DNA from: Lachnospiraceae bacterium
GTDB lineage: Bacteria; Bacillota; Clostridia; Lachnospirales; Lachnospiraceae
Direction of reading: 5' to 3'
Length of the DNA: 64,000 nucleotides
NCBI GenBank assembly: GCA_045597325.1
Contig: JAZLJJ010000011.1
Coordinates: 14,426-78,425 of the forward strand
Position 1 is the stretch's first letter. The number at the start of each line of letters is the position of its first letter. The notes below the pieces were generated by a model, which saw nothing but the letters and a program-made list of their open reading frames with translations, had not been told where the DNA came from and made no database searches. Positions 35,150 to 43,880 of the stretch are shown here, piece after piece. A program made the position numbers and the translations under genes.

Positions 35150-35193
35150 AGAAGTCCTTCGGGTCACCTCCGGGTGATTCGGAGGGCTTTTTT
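35150..35193 (+). terminator. rho-independent terminator after crh
   Basis: CCTCCG-GGTGATT-CGGAGG inside a longer GC-rich hairpin, followed by CTTTTTT. Confidence 0.65.
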
Positions 35194-35370
35194 ATCTCAT
35201 AGGAAAGCTCGTCCTATGAGATAAAAAAACGCTCCGCGAGGATGCACACGTCTGTGCAGAGGAAAAATGTCGCTTCGCGACGCACAGGCGGCGCGAGCAT
35301 ATCGCAAGCGATATGCTTTGTTCTGTCATAGGAAAGTTCGTCCTATGAGATAAAAAAACATTCCGCGAGG
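35194..35370 (+). repeat. structured ~130-nt intergenic element, copy 4, plus a second partial unit (hairpin + A-run + CATTCCGCGAGG)
   Basis: A full unit is followed by TGTCATAGGAAAGTTCGTCCTATGAGATAAAAAAACATTCCGCGAGG. Confidence 0.95.
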
Positions 35371-35479
35371 AATAAAAGAACACCTTCAATAGAAGAATTT
35401 GGTCTTGTCAAATGAGCTATATTTGTGTTACATTGTTTTTGTTTCTTCAACACGTAGTGAAACGGAAGGGGAAAAGATA

Positions 35480-37693
35480 ATGAATCAAAAAACAGTAAAA
35501 AAATGGATGTGCTTACTCAGTGTGCTGTGTTGTCTGATGCTCGGTAACCGGACGACAGGGACGGCTTTGGCAGAGGCTGAAGTACCGGATACCGTAACAG
35601 CAGAGGTGGCAGCGAAAGAAACTACGGAAACAGCGAAAGAGACTACGGATGCGGAGCCGGTGGCAGCAGTGGATGAATCATTTGCAGAAACCACAGAGGC
35701 CACCAATATTGCAAGCGGTACCGGCTGGTATTTGGATCGTGCCGGATGCCTGCATCTTACAGGAAAAATAGAAGAAATTGGCTGGAAAGATTACAAATCG
35801 AATATTATAACAGTTATCGCTGAGACGGGTTCATCACTCGGACAGGATGGAAGAAAAGTGTTTATGGATTGTAATAATCTCGTATCTGCTGACTTAAGTA
35901 AGTTGGATACGTCGAATGTACTTGATATGTCCGATATGTTTAACGGATGTTATTCGTTAACAACATTGGATGTCAGTACATGGGATACGTCGCATGTGGC
36001 ACATTTCATTCGTATGTTTTACGACTGTACAGTATTAACGACATTGGATGTCAGTGAGTGGGATATGTCGGGCGCGATATTTATTGATGACATGTTTGGG
36101 GAGTGTCGTGCATTAACAACCTTGGATGTCAGTAAGTGGCGTACACCGCATTTATACAGCGCGACATATACGTTTTTTCGTTGTAGAAAATTAACGACCC
36201 TGGATGTCAGCAATTGGGATACATCGAACGTGACGGATATGAGCGGAATATTTGATGGTTGCGAGGCAGTGAAGGAATTGGATGTCAGCAAGTGGGATAC
36301 GTCAAACGTGACGAGAATGGGCAAAATGTTTATGTGCTGTTATTCCGTAACGGAATTGGACGTCAGCAAGTGGAATGTATCAAACGTGACGAGTATGCAG
36401 AACATGTTCAATGAGTGCTCGGCTTTATCGGAATTGGATGTCAGCAAGTGGAATGTATCAAACGTGACCAATATGAGCAACATGTTTAAGCGTTGCAGTT
36501 CGTTGACGGCACCGGCTGTCAGCAATTGGGACATGTCAAGCGTGACAGATATGGATTACATGTTTTCATATTGCAGTTCATTAACTACACTGGATCTCAG
36601 CGGGTGGGATATCTCGAAAGTGAAAAGACTGGATGACTTTGTTTGGGAGAGTAATTCGCTTCATACGATTATTTGGCCCAAACAGGTAAAGGATGATCTT
36701 AGGCTGAAATGGCTGGCAGAGGAATTGCTCGAGTATTGCCCTGTATGGTGTGATTCCAAAACGGGGAAGATGTATTCTGATGAGAAGGTAATGCAGAAAT
36801 TATCCGGTTCGGTGACACTTGTTGTCCATGGCATTGATATCCGGATAAGTAATGGTTGGGAGGGAGTTATCCTTAAGTGGACTCCGGTAGCAGGCAGCCC
36901 GGTAACGGTCTTTCGTAAGGAAGCCGATATTTATCGAAATTCATCCGACGATTTGAGTGGTCTGGATTACACTAGGTATAATGGCAAGTGGACGAAAATG
37001 GCAACCACGACGGAAGGGGTGTATTATGACAAAGAGGTAACAAACGCAAAAGGATATGATTATATTGTGTTGCGAAACAATGCGACAACGCCGCGGTCGA
37101 TACCTCTGAATATATGCCGTTATGTTCAGCCTCCGACGATAGAGTCAGTGACCAATGTGGCCGGCGGAGTGAAGGTGAGCTGGTCGTCTGAGAGCTATAG
37201 GCCGGACGGATTCTTCGTGTATCGCAAAGACACTCAGAACGGTACGTGGCACATGATTGGCTCTACCCAAAAGAATCTGACCTATACGGATACAACCGTG
37301 GAAAACGGAGTAGTATACTATTATGCCGTGAAAGAATTCTATAAAGAGACGAAAACGTACCGAAGCTACAGTGCTTCCAGTTCCGCAAAGAATACAGTTT
37401 ATGCGAAGAATGTATTTATTTCCGCGATTTCCAATCCGCGTCCCGGTGATTTCACGGTGGTTCATTCCGTAAACGACAAGGCAACCGGATACCAGATTGC
37501 ATACAGTACCAATTCCAATATGAGCGGCTCCAAGTACGTGACTCAGGCGGGAGGAAACTATACAACCATTAAGGCAACCGGACTGACAAAGGGCAAGACA
37601 TATTATGTCATGGTACGCCCGTATAAGACCGTCGCCGGTTACACCTTCTACGGTGCATGGAGTGCCAAGAAGGTGGTTACCGTTACGAAGTAA
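35480..37693 (+). CDS. secreted surface protein: DUF285/BspA-type leucine-rich repeats + FN3-like repeats
   Basis: Signal peptide MNQKTVKKWMCLLSVLCCLM...ALAEA. About 10 copies of a 25-aa repeat L..LDVS.WDTSNVT.M..MF..C (about 35900-36640). C-terminal modules such as GVKVSWS...G(Y/F).VYRKDT..GTW..IG....LTYTDTTVENGVVYYYAVKA are FN3-like. Confidence 0.8.
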   Translation: MNQKTVKKWMCLLSVLCCLMLGNRTTGTALAEAEVPDTVTAEVAAKETTETAKETTDAEPVAAVDESFAETTEATNIASGTGWYLDRAGCLHLTGKIEEIGWKDYKSNIITVIAETGSSLGQDGRKVFMDCNNLVSADLSKLDTSNVLDMSDMFNGCYSLTTLDVSTWDTSHVAHFIRMFYDCTVLTTLDVSEWDMSGAIFIDDMFGECRALTTLDVSKWRTPHLYSATYTFFRCRKLTTLDVSNWDTSNVTDMSGIFDGCEAVKELDVSKWDTSNVTRMGKMFMCCYSVTELDVSKWNVSNVTSMQNMFNECSALSELDVSKWNVSNVTNMSNMFKRCSSLTAPAVSNWDMSSVTDMDYMFSYCSSLTTLDLSGWDISKVKRLDDFVWESNSLHTIIWPKQVKDDLRLKWLAEELLEYCPVWCDSKTGKMYSDEKVMQKLSGSVTLVVHGIDIRISNGWEGVILKWTPVAGSPVTVFRKEADIYRNSSDDLSGLDYTRYNGKWTKMATTTEGVYYDKEVTNAKGYDYIVLRNNATTPRSIPLNICRYVQPPTIESVTNVAGGVKVSWSSESYRPDGFFVYRKDTQNGTWHMIGSTQKNLTYTDTTVENGVVYYYAVKEFYKETKTYRSYSASSSAKNTVYAKNVFISAISNPRPGDFTVVHSVNDKATGYQIAYSTNSNMSGSKYVTQAGGNYTTIKATGLTKGKTYYVMVRPYKTVAGYTFYGAWSAKKVVTVTK

Positions 37694-37793
37694 ACGCGGC
37701 GCCCGGAGTGCAGCGAAGCCGATTGCATTGACGAAATAAACAGCGTCCTGAGTGCAGCAAAAACGATTACATTGACGAAATAAATGCTGCATA
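37660..37793. repeat. tandem repeat, 44-46 bp x 3, re-iterating the last 11 codons plus the stop of the surface-protein gene
   Basis: Unit starts (GAGTGC) at 37660, 37706 and 37750. The units translate as WSAKKVVTVTK*, SAAKPIALTK* and SAAKTITLTK*. Confidence 0.9.
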
Positions 37794-37849: not shown

Positions 37850-38521
37850 ATGATGTTAACAATTGAAGAGTTCTATTGGGCAATGGGAATTATTATAGGG
37901 GTTACGGCATTGGTTTGTGCGGTGTATTGCGGTATTTATTTTATTTGGGGAAAGAAGCATTTCCGCCGTGCGTATCCGTCAAGAGTCTGCTGCATAGTGC
38001 TGATTTTGGCATTGGCAGCGTCGAGTTTATTTGGCATCGACCAAATGACCAAACGGGTAGAGTACAGAAAGAAGCACTACACCTCGGTCAATAATTCCAA
38101 ACACTATTGCCTTGGTGTGAGCGGTGAGAGCGAGGATGTATATAGCGAGGGAAATGATTGGCTGCAGAGAATGGAACAGGATAAAAATGCAGTTCAGGAA
38201 ATCACTTCCTTCGAGAGCGATTCGGTGCAAATGACGGCTTACATCTTAAAATCGAGAGAAACTTATCAGGCGAAGGTTTTCCTCAAGGTGGAACCTCTCG
38301 GTGAAACAGAGTATTTTGATAATTTCGGACTCGTATGGTTTGAAAACAAGGAAGAGATTGCCAATTCGGGAATCATTGGACCCCTGCCGCCGGAAGAGTC
38401 CCGTTTCCTTGTCAAAATAGACTGTTCGGAAGCGATTACCTCGCTTCATTTTGATATTGATTGCTATGATGAAACCGGCGCGAAAAAGCATGAAGCATTT
38501 GTACTTGATCTTTCAAAATGA
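37850..38521 (+). CDS. hypothetical membrane-anchored protein
   Basis: AGGAGG RBS, ATGATG start, 1-2 N-terminal TM helices, no recognisable domain. Confidence 0.55.
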   Translation: MMLTIEEFYWAMGIIIGVTALVCAVYCGIYFIWGKKHFRRAYPSRVCCIVLILALAASSLFGIDQMTKRVEYRKKHYTSVNNSKHYCLGVSGESEDVYSEGNDWLQRMEQDKNAVQEITSFESDSVQMTAYILKSRETYQAKVFLKVEPLGETEYFDNFGLVWFENKEEIANSGIIGPLPPEESRFLVKIDCSEAITSLHFDIDCYDETGAKKHEAFVLDLSK

Positions 38522-38593: not shown

Positions 38594-39289
38594 ATGAGAG
38601 TATCGGTATGTGATGATTTGATAGAGGCTATCGAGGACTTGAAAGAGAAACTGTCGCATTTCCAGGAAATTACGGCCATTGATACGTATTCGGATTTGGA
38701 TGTTTTTGCAAAGAGCATTGGGAAAATTGAATACGACATTTGTTTCATGGATATTGACTGGGGAAAAGAGAAAATGCTTGGAATTGATTTCGCCGAGCGG
38801 CTGAAGGGGTGTTCCATCATTTTCGTGACGGCGTATCCGATGGAATTTGCCGAGAAAATATTTGGTAAAGATTATACGCCGAGCGGCTTCCTGATTAAGC
38901 CGGCGAAGGAAGAACAGATTGCGATTCTGCTCGGGAAGGTTCTGCGGGAACGTCGGATGAAGATGAAAACCGTTTCGTTTTCCATCAATGGCAAATGCCG
39001 GGTGACGAAGTTTGAGGACATCGTTTTTCTGGAGGGAGTTCTGCACAAAACAAAAGTGCATCTCAGTGACCGGAAGGAACTGGTTGTAAATAAATCATTG
39101 TCGGAGCTGTCGGAGTCGATGCCGGAGTATTTTCTGAGGTGCCACAAAAGCTTTGTGGTCAATCCGTTGTACGTCGAGACTTTGAAAGCGGACAAGGTGA
39201 CGCTGAAGACGTCCGAGGCGATTTCCGTCAGTCGGGCGAGGCGGGCGGACACGAAGGCACAGTTTCTGGATTATTTGGCAAATCATTAA
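38594..39289 (+). CDS. LytTR-family response regulator
   Basis: Receiver MRVSVCDD...ICFMDIDW...FVTAY and a C-terminal LytTR domain ...IVFLEGVLHKTKVHL...FLRCHKSFVVN. AAGGAG RBS. Confidence 0.85.
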   Translation: MRVSVCDDLIEAIEDLKEKLSHFQEITAIDTYSDLDVFAKSIGKIEYDICFMDIDWGKEKMLGIDFAERLKGCSIIFVTAYPMEFAEKIFGKDYTPSGFLIKPAKEEQIAILLGKVLRERRMKMKTVSFSINGKCRVTKFEDIVFLEGVLHKTKVHLSDRKELVVNKSLSELSESMPEYFLRCHKSFVVNPLYVETLKADKVTLKTSEAISVSRARRADTKAQFLDYLANH

Positions 39290-39311: not shown

Positions 39312-40139
39312 ATGAAGAGGTACTGGTGGTTATTTGTGCTGTTTCCGATCAGCCAGTTTTTTCTGATAATCAATGCGTATCAGACAGTCGGGCATTTGGA
39401 CAGAAGGGGCATACTGGGGCTGATTCTGGCGCCGATTGCGGATGTGCTGGTGCTGTTCCTCATTTTGAGTTCGCAGCGTAAGGAGAAGGTGGAATACGAG
39501 CTTCAGAAGGTTCAGATGCTGCGGGAAGCGGAGGCACGTCGAAATGAAAATCTGGAACGCAGCCAGAAGGCGTTTCTGGAACTGAAAGAATCGCTGGCGT
39601 CGGAATTTGAACGGGTGAAAGAATCCATGAAGAATTCGGATGACAACGGTGAGAGCGACTGGAAACATTTTGAGGATGTCCTGGAATCCACGCGACATAC
39701 ATTTTATACGGAAAATGTCATTGCCAACGCGATTTTGTCGGAAAAACAGAAGCAGTGCAGGCAGGAACTTCAGACGGAGATTGAGATTTCCGCATCGCTG
39801 TCCCGGCATGTTTCCTTTGATCCGATGCAGTTGTGCAGCCTGTATGCAAATTTGATTGATAATGCGATGGAAGCAATTGCCGAGCTTGAGCCGGAGAAAC
39901 GGTTTATCCGGCTGGAGACCGGCTACAACGCCGGAAATATGTGGATTCGTGTCAGTAACCCGGCCGATGAGAGTCATGTCGTGAGAACGCGTCGGGAAGG
40001 ACACGGATACGGAAGGAATATTTTGGAATCGATTGCCAATCAGCACAACGGCGTGTACAAGGCGGAATACAAGAACGGAATATACGAAGCATCTGTGATG
40101 GTTGAAGCAGAGGAAACGGGGGCCACACGTGATATTTAA
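39312..40139 (+). CDS. GHKL ATPase-domain protein of the AgrC/LytTR-associated kinase type: 2 TM + coiled coil + ATPase, no recognisable phospho-acceptor H-box
   Basis: C-terminal YTENVIANAILSEKQ...LYANLIDNAMEA...EGHGYGRNILESI (N and G boxes). The position where relatives carry RHDxxNH reads FLELKESL. Confidence 0.7.
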   Translation: MKRYWWLFVLFPISQFFLIINAYQTVGHLDRRGILGLILAPIADVLVLFLILSSQRKEKVEYELQKVQMLREAEARRNENLERSQKAFLELKESLASEFERVKESMKNSDDNGESDWKHFEDVLESTRHTFYTENVIANAILSEKQKQCRQELQTEIEISASLSRHVSFDPMQLCSLYANLIDNAMEAIAELEPEKRFIRLETGYNAGNMWIRVSNPADESHVVRTRREGHGYGRNILESIANQHNGVYKAEYKNGIYEASVMVEAEETGATRDI

Positions 40140-40932
40140 CAAGGTTTTGCTGGTGAGCATGTGGGCGTACAATTTCGTATATGCCTATGGGTTGTGTGCG
40201 TTTGTTATGAAACGGCGGTTTGGAAAGGTTGCCAGTGTTTTTCTGTTTCTCGGACTCAGTTCGGTGATAATCGGGTTTCGCATCTGGTTTGTCATCGGAG
40301 GCGGACAGGATGCGGTGCCGGTGGGAAGCATGGTGACGATGTTGGGGTGCTTCTCTCTGCAGGTTGTTTTGTTTCGCGGAAAATGGTTCCGGCAGCTGAT
40401 GAATTATGCAATTGTATCGGTGTTTGCGATACTGGCGGAAATTCTCGCGTCGTTCTTTGCTTCGAGCATTACGGGAAGTGTGGAATCATTTAACTTTAAC
40501 GATCCCGGATTCCGGGTCGGCATGTTACTGTTCTTCCCGTCTTTGTCGGCGATGATATATCCGACGATTGTGCTCTTGCGAAAAGTGAACCGTTTATCGG
40601 TCGGCGAAGTGATCGGTGCGTATTCGTGGCTTGTGGTGACATTTCCGTTAAGCCAAATGTTCCTGATTAATCTCTACACCGGCGTCACGACGGTAGTGAA
40701 ACCGATTGGTTTGATTGGTGCACTGGTCGGAATTACATCCGATTGTCTGCTGATTTGGTTCCTCGATAAGGAGCACCAGAAATTCCGACTCCGGAAAGAG
40801 CTCGAAGAAGAAAAACAAATGCTGGAATTTGAGGAAATGACGTATCGGGACCTGATGTCGCAGCAGGAAGAAATCGCGCAGCTGCGGCACGATTACCGGA
40901 ACCAGATGATTGCACTGAAAGCGATAAAATGA
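40102..40932 (+). CDS. polytopic membrane protein ending in a histidine-kinase H-box (LRHDYRNQMIAL) with no ATPase domain
   Basis: About 6 TM helices. The last two TM helices plus the coiled coil are paralogous to the N-terminus of the preceding gene (WLVVTFPLSQMFLINLY vs WLFVLFPISQFFLIINAY). Start uncertain (TTG 40102, GTG 40129 or ATG 40159). Confidence 0.6.
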   Translation: MKQRKRGPHVIFNKVLLVSMWAYNFVYAYGLCAFVMKRRFGKVASVFLFLGLSSVIIGFRIWFVIGGGQDAVPVGSMVTMLGCFSLQVVLFRGKWFRQLMNYAIVSVFAILAEILASFFASSITGSVESFNFNDPGFRVGMLLFFPSLSAMIYPTIVLLRKVNRLSVGEVIGAYSWLVVTFPLSQMFLINLYTGVTTVVKPIGLIGALVGITSDCLLIWFLDKEHQKFRLRKELEEEKQMLEFEEMTYRDLMSQQEEIAQLRHDYRNQMIALKAIK

Positions 40933-41030
40933 ACGGGCACCGAAACCAGATGATGGCACTGAAAGCGATAAAATGAACGATTATCGAGACCAAATATTGG
41001 CATCGAAAAAGCAATAAAGTGAAATAAAAA
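40888..41030. repeat. tandem repeat, 44 bp x 3, re-iterating the H-box codons plus the stop codon
   Basis: ACCAGATGAT at 40901 and 40945, ACCAAATATT at 40989. The units translate as HDYRNQMIALKAIK*, GHRNQMMALKAIK* and DYRDQILASKKQ*. Confidence 0.9.
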
Positions 41031-41257
41031 ACCGAAAAAGTGACAAGCTATTTTGCAAAAACATCGACTTGTTGAGCATGAATAAAAGTGCTCGACAGAC
41101 CGGTGTTTTTTTTGTATGCTAATTCTGCCGGGAAATCCGCCGTTTCTGCATGTGAGGTTGAATGAAACATGGGAAAATGGGAAGATTAAGGGGAAGTATA
41201 TGGCCGGGTGAGGGCTGTATATGAGATGACAAAAACTAAAAAACGGAGGAATGAATT

Positions 41258-42417
41258 ATGAGAAGATTTATGTTGTTACTTTTGTCGGTTTTCTTGCTGG
41301 CAAGCGTATCTGCTTGTGGGAAGACGGATAAAAATGATACGCAGAGGCAAGATGACAAACAAAAGACCACTCAAATACCGACGGTGGCACCGACTGCAAC
41401 GCAAGTGCCGTCACCGATGCCTACAAAAGAAACAACTATTCCAACAAACCCGCCGACACCGGAACCAACGGATGGTGTGATTCTAAAACGGGGAAAATGT
41501 ATTCCGATGTGAAGCCATTGCAAGCAATATCCGGTCCGGTGACACTTATTTGTCATGGCATTTCTGTTCAAGTAGGAAATGGTTGGGAAGGAGTTACCAT
41601 TAAATGGACTCCGATACAGGGACAATCGGTAACGGTATATCGTAAAAGGATGTATCTTGAGCAAGACCCATCTGCCGATTGGAATGGTACGAGAAGTTAT
41701 GACCTCGACACAGAGTGGACGAAACTGGCGACTACGACGGCAGGAGGGTATTATGATAAATCGGTTACAAACGGAGACGGATATGAGTATCGTGCGGTAC
41801 TAAACAAGGCGAAAACACCGCAGCGGACGTATTCGAGTATATGCCGTTACGTTCAAGCACCGACAATCCAGTCGGTGACCAATGTGGCCGGCGGAGTGAA
41901 GGTGAGTTGGTCGGCAGTGGATGGTGCAAACGGATACATAGTATATCGCAAAGACACTCAGGCAGGAACATGGCATATGATTGGTTCCACACAGAAGAAT
42001 CTGACCTATACGGATACAACCGTGGAGAACGGAGTGGTATATTATTATGCCATCAAGGCATTCTTTTATGAGATGGGAAAATCCAGAAGTTACAGTGCTT
42101 CCAGTTCTGCTAAAAACACGGTTTATGTGAAGAACGTATTCATTTCGTCCATTGCAAATCCGCGTCCCGGTGATTTCACGGTGGTTCATTCCGTCAATGA
42201 CAAAGCAACCGGATACCAGATTGCATACAGTACCAATTCCGATATGAGCGGTTCCAAGTACGTAACTCAGGCAGGTGGAAGTTATACGACTATTAAGGCA
42301 ACCGGACTGACAAAGGGCAAGACATATTACGTCATGGTACGCCCGTATAAGATCGTCGCCGGTTATACCTTCTACGGTGCATGGAGCGCCAAGAAAACGA
42401 TTACGTTGACGAAGTAG
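41258..42417 (+). pseudogene. lipoprotein signal/PT-linker ORF (41258..41512) out of frame with an FN3-like ORF (41497..42417): either a frameshifted paralog of the C-terminus of 35480..37693 or a -1 frameshift-dependent gene
   Basis: Lipobox LLASVSAC and a Pro/Thr linker in frame A. Frame B is homologous to residues ~WCDSKTGKMYSD...VTVTK of the upstream surface protein. The two frames overlap by 16 nt, and the overlap contains G_GGA_AAA. Confidence 0.6.
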
Positions 42418-42445
42418 ATAAGTAAATTCATGGCAATACAAACTA

Positions 42446-42476
42446 AGACCTGTCGCTCTCCGCGGCAGGTCTTTTT
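42446..42476 (+). terminator. rho-independent terminator
   Basis: AGACCTG-TCGCTCTCCGCGG-CAGGTCT followed by T5. Confidence 0.8.
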
Positions 42477-42625
42477 ATCTCATAGGAAAGTTCGTCCTAT
42501 GAGATAAAAAACGCTCCGCGAGGATGCACACGCCTGTGCAGAGGAAAAATGTCGCTTCGCGACGCACAGGCGGCGCGAGCATATCGCAAGCGATATGCTT
42601 TGTTCTGACATGAGATATAGGACAA
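42477..42625 (+). repeat. structured ~130-nt intergenic element, copy 5 (plus a decayed second hairpin)
   Basis: A full unit 42477-42606, then TGACATGAGATATAGGACAAAACG. Confidence 0.95.
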
Positions 42626-43774: not shown

Positions 43775-43880
43775 CCGATACAGAAATAATTTTGCCACGA
43801 TACAGAAATTATTTCCGCAATACAATAAATTATTTCCGTAATACAATAAATAATCGTTGCCACAGTACAGAAACAACTTG
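43775..43880. repeat. five imperfect ~21-bp direct repeats upstream of the DMT transporter gene
   Basis: CCGATACAGAAATAATTTTG / CCACGATACAGAAATTATTT / CCGCAATACAATAAATTATTT / CCGTAATACAATAAATAATCGTTG / CCACAGTACAGAAACAACTTG. Confidence 0.75.

Follow-up and report, generated by a model that had tools for sequence, protein, structure and literature searches.

In the usual description, a histidine kinase is a homodimer, and each of its chains bears a sensor, an acceptor His and an ATP-binding domain. AgrC/AgrA typifies the HPK10-class kinases that work with LytTR regulators, a class that also includes ComD, PlnB and FsrC. Kinase-like proteins that act upon other kinases are known as well: RetS inhibits GacS, both being also able to homodimerize, and DivL regulates CckA. 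The present analysis concerns a stretch of 64,000 nucleotides from a gut Lachnospiraceae bacterium (GenBank assembly GCA_045597325.1, contig JAZLJJ010000011.1, positions 14,426 to 78,425 of the forward strand), referred to below as the window. It contains a gene for a LytTR response regulator (RR) followed by two overlapping genes, of which gene 1 encodes what we term the C (catalytic) subunit and gene 2 the S (sensor/His) subunit. Comparison of their sequences makes it probable that RR-C-S constitutes a two-component system whose kinase is an obligate heteromer, with C phosphorylating S in trans.

The closest published work concerns FasB, FasC and FasA of Streptococcus pyogenes (2025), where the kinase domain of FasB together with the transmembrane (TM) part, the dimerization and histidine phosphotransfer (DHp) part and His246 of FasC is sufficient (PMC12675982). 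FasB and FasC bind each other but not themselves in a two-hybrid assay, and the mechanism put forward in that study is phosphorylation in trans, after which the regulator Asp takes over the phosphoryl group (PMC12675982). As in RR-C-S, two AgrC-like membrane proteins with divided labor are encoded with a single LytTR (ComE-like) regulator. The likeness is at the sequence level, in that the His is needed on one partner there and is present only in S here, and it is one of architecture, not of a comparison with the FasB and FasC sequences. However, FasB and FasC are both full-length proteins (six TM helices, DHp and HATPase), whereas the C of the window lacks five TM helices and the His, its S lacks the second DHp helix and the ATP-binding domain, and several S genes may go with one C. 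By analogy, RR-C-S looks like the FasBC arrangement with its dispensable parts deleted.

AgrC itself autophosphorylates in trans across the dimer (George Cisar 2009, as cited in PMC6066662), and this, along with the FasBC results, makes a C-to-S trans mechanism plausible for this class of kinase. RR-C-S shares with AgrC the HATPase_c_5 domain, a polytopic TM sensor, an H-box of the RHD(F/Y)xN type and a LytTR partner. In contrast to AgrC, which is one polypeptide forming a homodimer, it has the His and the ATP-binding domain on separate chains. The concept of a split kinase is itself known from CheA3/CheA4 of Rhodobacter sphaeroides, in which the His is on one protein, the catalytic domain on the other, and neither autophosphorylates alone (PMC3591291). 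Both systems place the His and ATP-binding functions on separate, co-encoded polypeptides that are each incomplete alone, but CheA3/CheA4 are soluble proteins of the CheA class with the His on Hpt/P1, are unrelated in sequence and architecture, and have neither a membrane sensor on the His piece nor a vestigial DHp on the catalytic piece. None of the CheA-type domains (Hpt/P1, P3, P4, P5) was recovered by the Pfam or NCBIfam scans. RetS-GacS and DivL offer another parallel, as kinase-like proteins without a functional acceptor His that act through DHp-mediated contacts with a partner, but neither RetS nor DivL provides the sole ATP-binding domain of a kinase. Full-text literature searches for split, bipartite or His-less AgrC/LytTR kinases turned up no account of an AgrC-type kinase that is physically split.

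The proposed catalytic and sensor subunits

RR, C and S, together with an upstream membrane-protein gene, form four plus-strand genes flanked by two paralogous surface-protein genes. The features of this region are as follows:

37853..38521, plus strand: upstream membrane protein, 222 amino acids (aa) from ATG 37853; the open reading frame (ORF) opens at 37784
38594..39289, plus strand: LytTR-family response regulator, 231 aa from the probable start ATG 38594; the ORF opens at GTG 38567
39312..40139, plus strand: C subunit (gene 1), 275 aa; two TM helices, a His-less DHp-like hairpin and HATPase_c_5
40129..40932, plus strand: S subunit (gene 2), 267 aa from the most likely start GTG 40129; seven TM helices and the H-box helix
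40889..41002, plus strand: tandem 44-nt copies of the S 3' end; three copies, the first being the real gene end
41063..41117, plus strand: intrinsic-terminator-like hairpin followed by a T run (RNA fold)

The C protein matches Pfam HATPase_c_5 (PF14501) with an E value of 5.4e-12 over residues 171-264 (approximately 39822-40103). Its AlphaFold2 model (pLDDT 77) comprises TM1 (residues 5-24), a long helix (31-108) that continues TM2 and, after a further helix (113-127), an alpha/beta ATP-binding domain. The best PDB matches of this model are the ATP-binding domain of S. aureus AgrC (4bxi, TM-score 0.77 on the target) and the AgrC cytoplasmic module (6e52/6e95), and RetS-GacS and DivL are also among its fold matches. 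In an alignment of 20 sequences that includes full-length kinases, N180, N184, N216, G234 and G247 never vary, and at least 90% of the sequences share D183 and G232. Thus, the N-box and G2-box of C are intact, and the two TM helices and complete GHKL ATPase domain that a preliminary description of this DNA had read in gene 1 are borne out. The same description had seen no phospho-acceptor in FLELKESL, and when C is aligned to full-length relatives, the H-box column indeed reads L-K-E93-S-L, with the Glu93 codon at 39588-39590. Close C orthologues all read LELKE(S/A)L, and the His-less hairpin is strongly conserved. At the H-box column, none of seven C proteins has His (E, E, E, E, A, E, Q; the C of G361 has Arg), as against all 58 S proteins and full-length relatives in the same alignment. 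An alternative acceptor His in the DHp region of C was sought across lineages, and none was conserved.

The S protein is the complement of C: it retains an invariant H-box and has neither a Pfam match nor an ATP-binding domain in the Pfam scan. The AlphaFold2 model (pLDDT 80) shows seven TM helices, the last of which runs on as an 80-residue helix bearing QLRHDYRNQMIALKAIK, after which the protein stops. Both this model and the positive-inside pattern give seven TM helices in place of the approximately six counted earlier. The H-box reads LRHDYRNQ, with the acceptor at His254 (His263 if numbered from TTG 40102; codon 40888-40890), and the H-D-x-x-N motif is retained. The stop falls 13 residues past the His, so that the second DHp helix is missing. 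The acceptor His is invariant in all aligned homologues, in accord with the good H-box, followed directly by a stop, that had been noticed in gene 2. The TTG at 40102 had been taken as the start of this gene; because its orthologues begin MIFNK, MILFK or MLITK at the position matching GTG 40129, the latter is most likely the true start. C residues 4-92 are homologous to S residues 174-262 (numbering from TTG 40102; 29% identity, E 3e-7), which supports the previously noted paralogy of the two TM-coil segments and indicates that C is a protein that has kept the last two TM helices (TM6-TM7 of S) and the coil of the ancestral kinase. The polytopic sensor of six to seven TM helices seen in AgrC/HPK10 kinases is therefore found in S, with C having the last two only, and the acceptor His and catalytic domain that those kinases join on one polypeptide are apart, C having Glu93 and S no catalytic domain. 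The characterization of the two proteins as complementary halves of an AgrC-type kinase is upheld.

The adjacent regulator matches Pfam LytTR (E 4.7e-16) and the BtsR/LytR/AgrA-like family of NCBIfam, with Response_reg slightly below the cut-off at 27.9 bits. Its start is probably ATG 38594 (MRVSVCDD). The receiver retains the DD pair, the acceptor Asp (FMDID), the Thr (VTAY) and the Lys (IKP), all of which are conserved in every orthologue. Intact phospho-acceptor residues in all lineages imply that a His donor is needed, and the adjacency and intact receiver agree with the earlier assignment of this protein as the partner of the kinase.

A C protein that acts alone, by noncanonical autophosphorylation or as a GHKL Ser/Thr kinase or ATPase on some other target, with S as an independent membrane protein, seems to us quite improbable. 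Such a role would draw on the complete ATP-binding domain of C, and a second His in FasB was not excluded by the FasB study (PMC12675982). Yet the DHp region of C has no conserved His in any lineage, S keeps an invariant H-box though it has no enzyme of its own, and the tight, often overlapping pairing of the C and S genes argues for a common function. In the window the C stop and the S start overlap by 11 nt, which suggests translational coupling of the two. The C/S junction and the S stop are covered without indels by contigs of three independent gut metagenomes, and the same genes occur in an independent metagenome-assembled genome (MAG) and in several Logan contigs; an assembly error was rejected on these grounds.

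Conservation and spread of the split

Word-indexed searches of 5.8 billion proteins recovered C and S orthologues of equal lengths, and the contigs encoding them carry the same module. A pattern-based search of species genomes recovered only the one close MAG, so that profile searches were required to trace the wider family. The arrangements in relatives of the window are as follows:

L006, Lachnospiraceae MAG GCA_045641285.1: 93% identity to the window; membrane protein-RR-C-S-S'
L008, Logan contig: 47-58% identity to the window; RR-C-S
L009-L012, Logan contigs: 55-67% identity to the window; RR-S-C-S'
G273, another genus of the family: RR-S-C; His replaced by Ala in C
G041: RR-C-S-S'; C of 386 aa, His replaced by Gln
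L024: RR-C-S; C 28% identical to that of the window, His replaced by Glu
G361: C-S-S'; His replaced by Arg in C

The complementary split beside a LytTR regulator thus recurs in at least eight lineages, down to 28% identity, which answers in the affirmative the earlier suggestion that homologous loci might share it. C and S are always neighbors and often overlap, with intergenic gaps of 90-230 nt also occurring. The preliminary description had viewed the C-S order as a circular permutation of a kinase. However, the order varies among relatives (S-C in G273, S-C-S' in L010, C-S-S' in L006 and G041) and hence carries no meaning; it is merely the gene order of an operon. The same observation bears on recoding, by frameshift or readthrough, of the two ORFs into one polypeptide. 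Their 11-nt overlap in different frames might invite this notion, but a C-to-S fusion would put the ATP-binding domain ahead of seven TM helices, the frame past the S stop meets another stop after six codons, and both the variable order (S-C, C-S, S-C-S') and the 90-230-nt gaps speak against it. We regard such recoding as barely conceivable and excluded it on the frames and the variable gene order.

Between the window and the related MAG (L006), the ratio of nonsynonymous to synonymous substitution rates (dN/dS) comes to 0.079 in C, 0.077 in S and 0.099 in the regulator, with dS at about 0.44; in more distant pairs the synonymous sites are saturated and the ORFs intact. The end of S is equally constant: in five of six aligned proteins, down to 47% identity, it reads ALKA[IL]K and falls 13 residues past the His. 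The sixth protein, P0005, is encoded by S1 of the related MAG and is the closest orthologue; it ends ALKAMRDR, 15 residues past the His. To place such ends in a wider frame, 215 matches of an S profile among 1.8 billion representative proteins were combined with the close orthologues; of the 152 S homologues in this pool, 130 had a recognizable H-box. The tail beyond the His is at most 20 residues in 19 proteins (short-tailed S of the window type), 21-60 residues in 47 (mostly 34-44, a whole DHp hairpin without the ATP-binding domain), 61-130 residues in 5 (intermediate) and more than 130 residues in 59 (full-length kinases). These discrete classes form a pattern that random truncation would not be expected to give. 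In a tree of 110 shared columns, the seven C proteins fall on one branch (SH-aLRT 92), but all are long branches, which leaves a single origin insecure. In the same tree, S-type proteins are scattered among full-length kinases at several positions.

These data bear directly on the possibility that C and S are two decaying pseudogenes, the remains of a kinase gene that had been duplicated. Signs of gene turnover at the locus, namely relic H-box repeats past S and the missing second S gene discussed below, would suit such decay. Nevertheless, dN/dS is about 0.08 for both genes, not near 1, and constraint is as strong as on the regulator; orthologues share the same end points down to 47% identity; lineages at 28% identity show this complementary loss as well; and the tails fall into discrete classes. 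We therefore consider decay very improbable, and the pseudogene reading was ruled out by the dN/dS values and conserved end points. Of the two fates envisaged in the preliminary description, a dead system or one working in trans, the first is at odds with this purifying selection and the conserved split, and the second is favored by the sequence comparisons. A related AgrC-like frame in G305 (L030, G305:C224) is broken by an internal TAA directly before the H-box; this is how a truly broken gene of the family looks, unlike the conserved split.

On the contigs L010/L011 (6629-11342), the split kinase adjoins a gene for a 1536-aa FHA-FtsK/SpoIIIE protein (EssC-like) and genes for proteins of 70-90 aa, in what looks like a type VII secretion locus. 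This locus sits downstream of a module comprising a LytTR protein (149 aa), DUF3021 and an ATP-binding cassette (ABC) transporter.

Sensor-gene turnover and the surroundings of the locus

Directly at the end of S, positions 40889-41002 hold a tandem repeat (Tandem Repeats Finder: period 44, 2.6 copies) whose units read HDYRNQMIALKAIK, NGHRNQMMALKAIK and NDYRDQILASKKQ, each followed by a stop, copies 2 and 3 being degenerate. Each 44-nt unit corresponds to the last 44 nt of S, which code for the H-box and include the stop, decayed in the later copies. The second S gene of the related MAG has a 3' end that matches copy 2 at 92.7% identity, and this MAG has its own, different set of degenerate copies past its last S gene (L006 7590-7780). 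The repeats are thus probably relics of lost S paralogues, left as scars of S-gene turnover, although the regular 44-nt period is not fully accounted for in this way. Nothing supports the repeats as LytTR sites, a candidate that we rejected since relics of S 3' ends explain them better. The second S gene is present in the related MAG (L006 6865-7638) and in one contig of another gut metagenome and is missing from the window. The two S paralogues of the MAG are 97-98% identical over the last approximately 57 codons at the DNA level, third positions included, compared to 53-71% over the remainder, which indicates gene conversion, and the S of the window bears the 3' end of the second S copy of the MAG. 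Taken together, these 3'-end patterns fit repeated unequal recombination at the conserved 3' end, and they would fit sensors as exchangeable cassettes on a common catalytic subunit.

A comparable arrangement is seen in an unrelated gene of the same region. The LRR/DUF285 surface-protein gene at 35399-37693 has its last 42 nt, stop included, followed by two more tandem copies (37653-37784, period 44-46 nt), and a fourth copy forms the 3' end of its paralogue at 41497-42417 (42377-42418). Tandemly repeated 3' ends in two unrelated gene families of one region are odd.

The hairpin and T run at 41063-41117 (-28.2 kcal/mol, z -4.15, none of 200 shuffles equally good in the RNA fold) are the probable end of the RR-C-S operon. 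At its other side, the upstream membrane protein, previously counted as an orphan member of the cassette, matched no Pfam family in the Pfam scan. The gene is found in the closest relative only, being absent in L008, L010, L024, G273 and G041. Its copy in the MAG (L006 3725-4393) is 99% identical to that of the window (37853-38521), and its dS of 0.03, compared to about 0.44 for RR, C and S next to it, suggests that this patch recombined recently. On account of this different history and its absence from other lineages, the membrane protein probably lies outside the core module and can no longer be counted with the cassette.

Direct repeats at 36745-37505 and 41472-42229, 77-84% identical and 4.7 kb apart, bracket the RR-C-S cassette; they are the Fn3-like C-terminal parts of the two surface proteins, and the whole cassette could be open to loss or movement through recombination between them. 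Farther out, the region of surface proteins and two-component system has on either side (35180-35371 and 42445-42611) a 106-nt repeat, 98% identical, and a hairpin terminator module (TCCTATGAGATAAAAAA and its complement) that occurs in repeated copies. Beyond it lies an EamA-family transporter gene on the minus strand (likely start approximately 43742). In its leader (43776-43851), a consensus TTGACA-17-TATAAT promoter and the ribosome-binding site enclose two near-perfect direct-repeat pairs with a period of 21-22 nt. These repeats may serve to bind a regulator or act as an element of the leader.

Proposed mechanism and significance

Since S carries the sole conserved His and C the sole ATP-binding domain, and the two genes are always together, an obligate heteromer is the simplest reading. 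In the mechanism that we propose, the seven-TM domain of S would receive the signal, with the long helix presenting the acceptor His254, and C would supply the ATP-binding domain, its own DHp-like hairpin being His-less (Glu93). Pairing is expected to involve the N-terminus of C, which shares homology with the coil and TM6-TM7 of S: the two proteins would pair via these TM-coil segments, mimicking the homodimer interface of an ordinary AgrC-type kinase. The ATP-binding domain of C would then phosphorylate His254 of S in trans, and phosphorylated S would pass the phosphoryl group to the Asp of the LytTR regulator, altering transcription. Given its H-D-x-x-N motif, S may also dephosphorylate the regulator. 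One C may serve several S paralogues, with S genes gained and lost between strains. The His-less hairpin of C is suggested to supply the helices missing from the bundle of short-tailed S proteins.

Several observations weigh against this reading. Lacking the second DHp helix, the S proteins of this clade cannot form the usual four-helix bundle and regulator docking surface in the normal manner. The sequencing runs carrying the locus are all DNA, and no RNA run was found among them. The module is rare and patchy: a narrow S profile matched in 7 of 301 genomes of the family, a genome of the same genus giving no match, and among 399 sampled Clostridia genomes, 83 had relatives and only about 8 (about 2%) had short frames. 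The loss of the second S gene in this strain means that the system is dispensable. Finally, the genome has a conventional pair of the same class at L002 (contig C10 4929-5699), made up of a LytTR regulator and a one-piece kinase (368 aa, intact H-box SIHDYKN, HATPase_c_5) and adjoining an ABC transporter gene; this kinase could in principle phosphorylate the RR of RR-C-S.

The last point also favors a different division of roles, in which S is a stand-alone phosphatase, phospho-sink or anti-kinase, C a pseudokinase or scaffold, and the regulator receives its phosphoryl group from another kinase or from acetyl phosphate. The phosphatase-type H-D-x-x-N motif retained by S would suit such a role, and DHp-only proteins have been proposed as possible bifunctional pieces (PMC3591291). 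On the other hand, the conserved ATP-binding residues of C, under purifying selection, are unexpected for a scaffold, and in many genomes C and S always co-occur beside their own regulator. We accordingly judge this alternative unlikely. As for the signal, an agr-type thiolactone peptide produced by the organism itself is improbable, as no AgrB/AgrD-like genes are present: their absence had been noted for the stretch and holds, no AgrB (PF04647) being found in the whole 97%-complete genome, with AgrD too short for a profile test.

Beyond the obligate heteromer of C and S, one possibility, which we advance tentatively, is a plug-in kinase, in which one membrane-anchored C could combine with any of several interchangeable seven-TM S proteins in an obligately asymmetric complex, and S cassettes would be swapped. 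In the short-tailed class, the C hairpin would complete the bundle, leaving each complex with a single active site. Sensor specificities would be gained and lost as cassettes by recombination at the H-box-coding 3' end. The near-identical last 57 codons of the S paralogues, the 44-nt H-box relics and the strain-variable copy number of S fit this picture.

If the two-piece kinase is real, an AgrC-type kinase is able to work as an obligate asymmetric heteromer, and the RR-C-S locus would offer a minimal natural system for trans-phosphorylation and for DHp bundles built from unequal parts. The design could also yield switch-like responses: according to modeling, a bifunctional split kinase whose His piece is also a phosphatase can give ultrasensitivity or bistability (PMC3591291). 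For annotation it serves as a warning, since counting HisKA plus HATPase on one protein overlooks split kinases, and pseudogene callers may mis-flag them. It would likewise account for many of the "hypothetical membrane proteins" and "GHKL domain proteins" found beside LytTR regulators in gut Firmicutes. More generally, one catalytic subunit common to several sensors would be a cheap means of wiring several signals into a single regulator.

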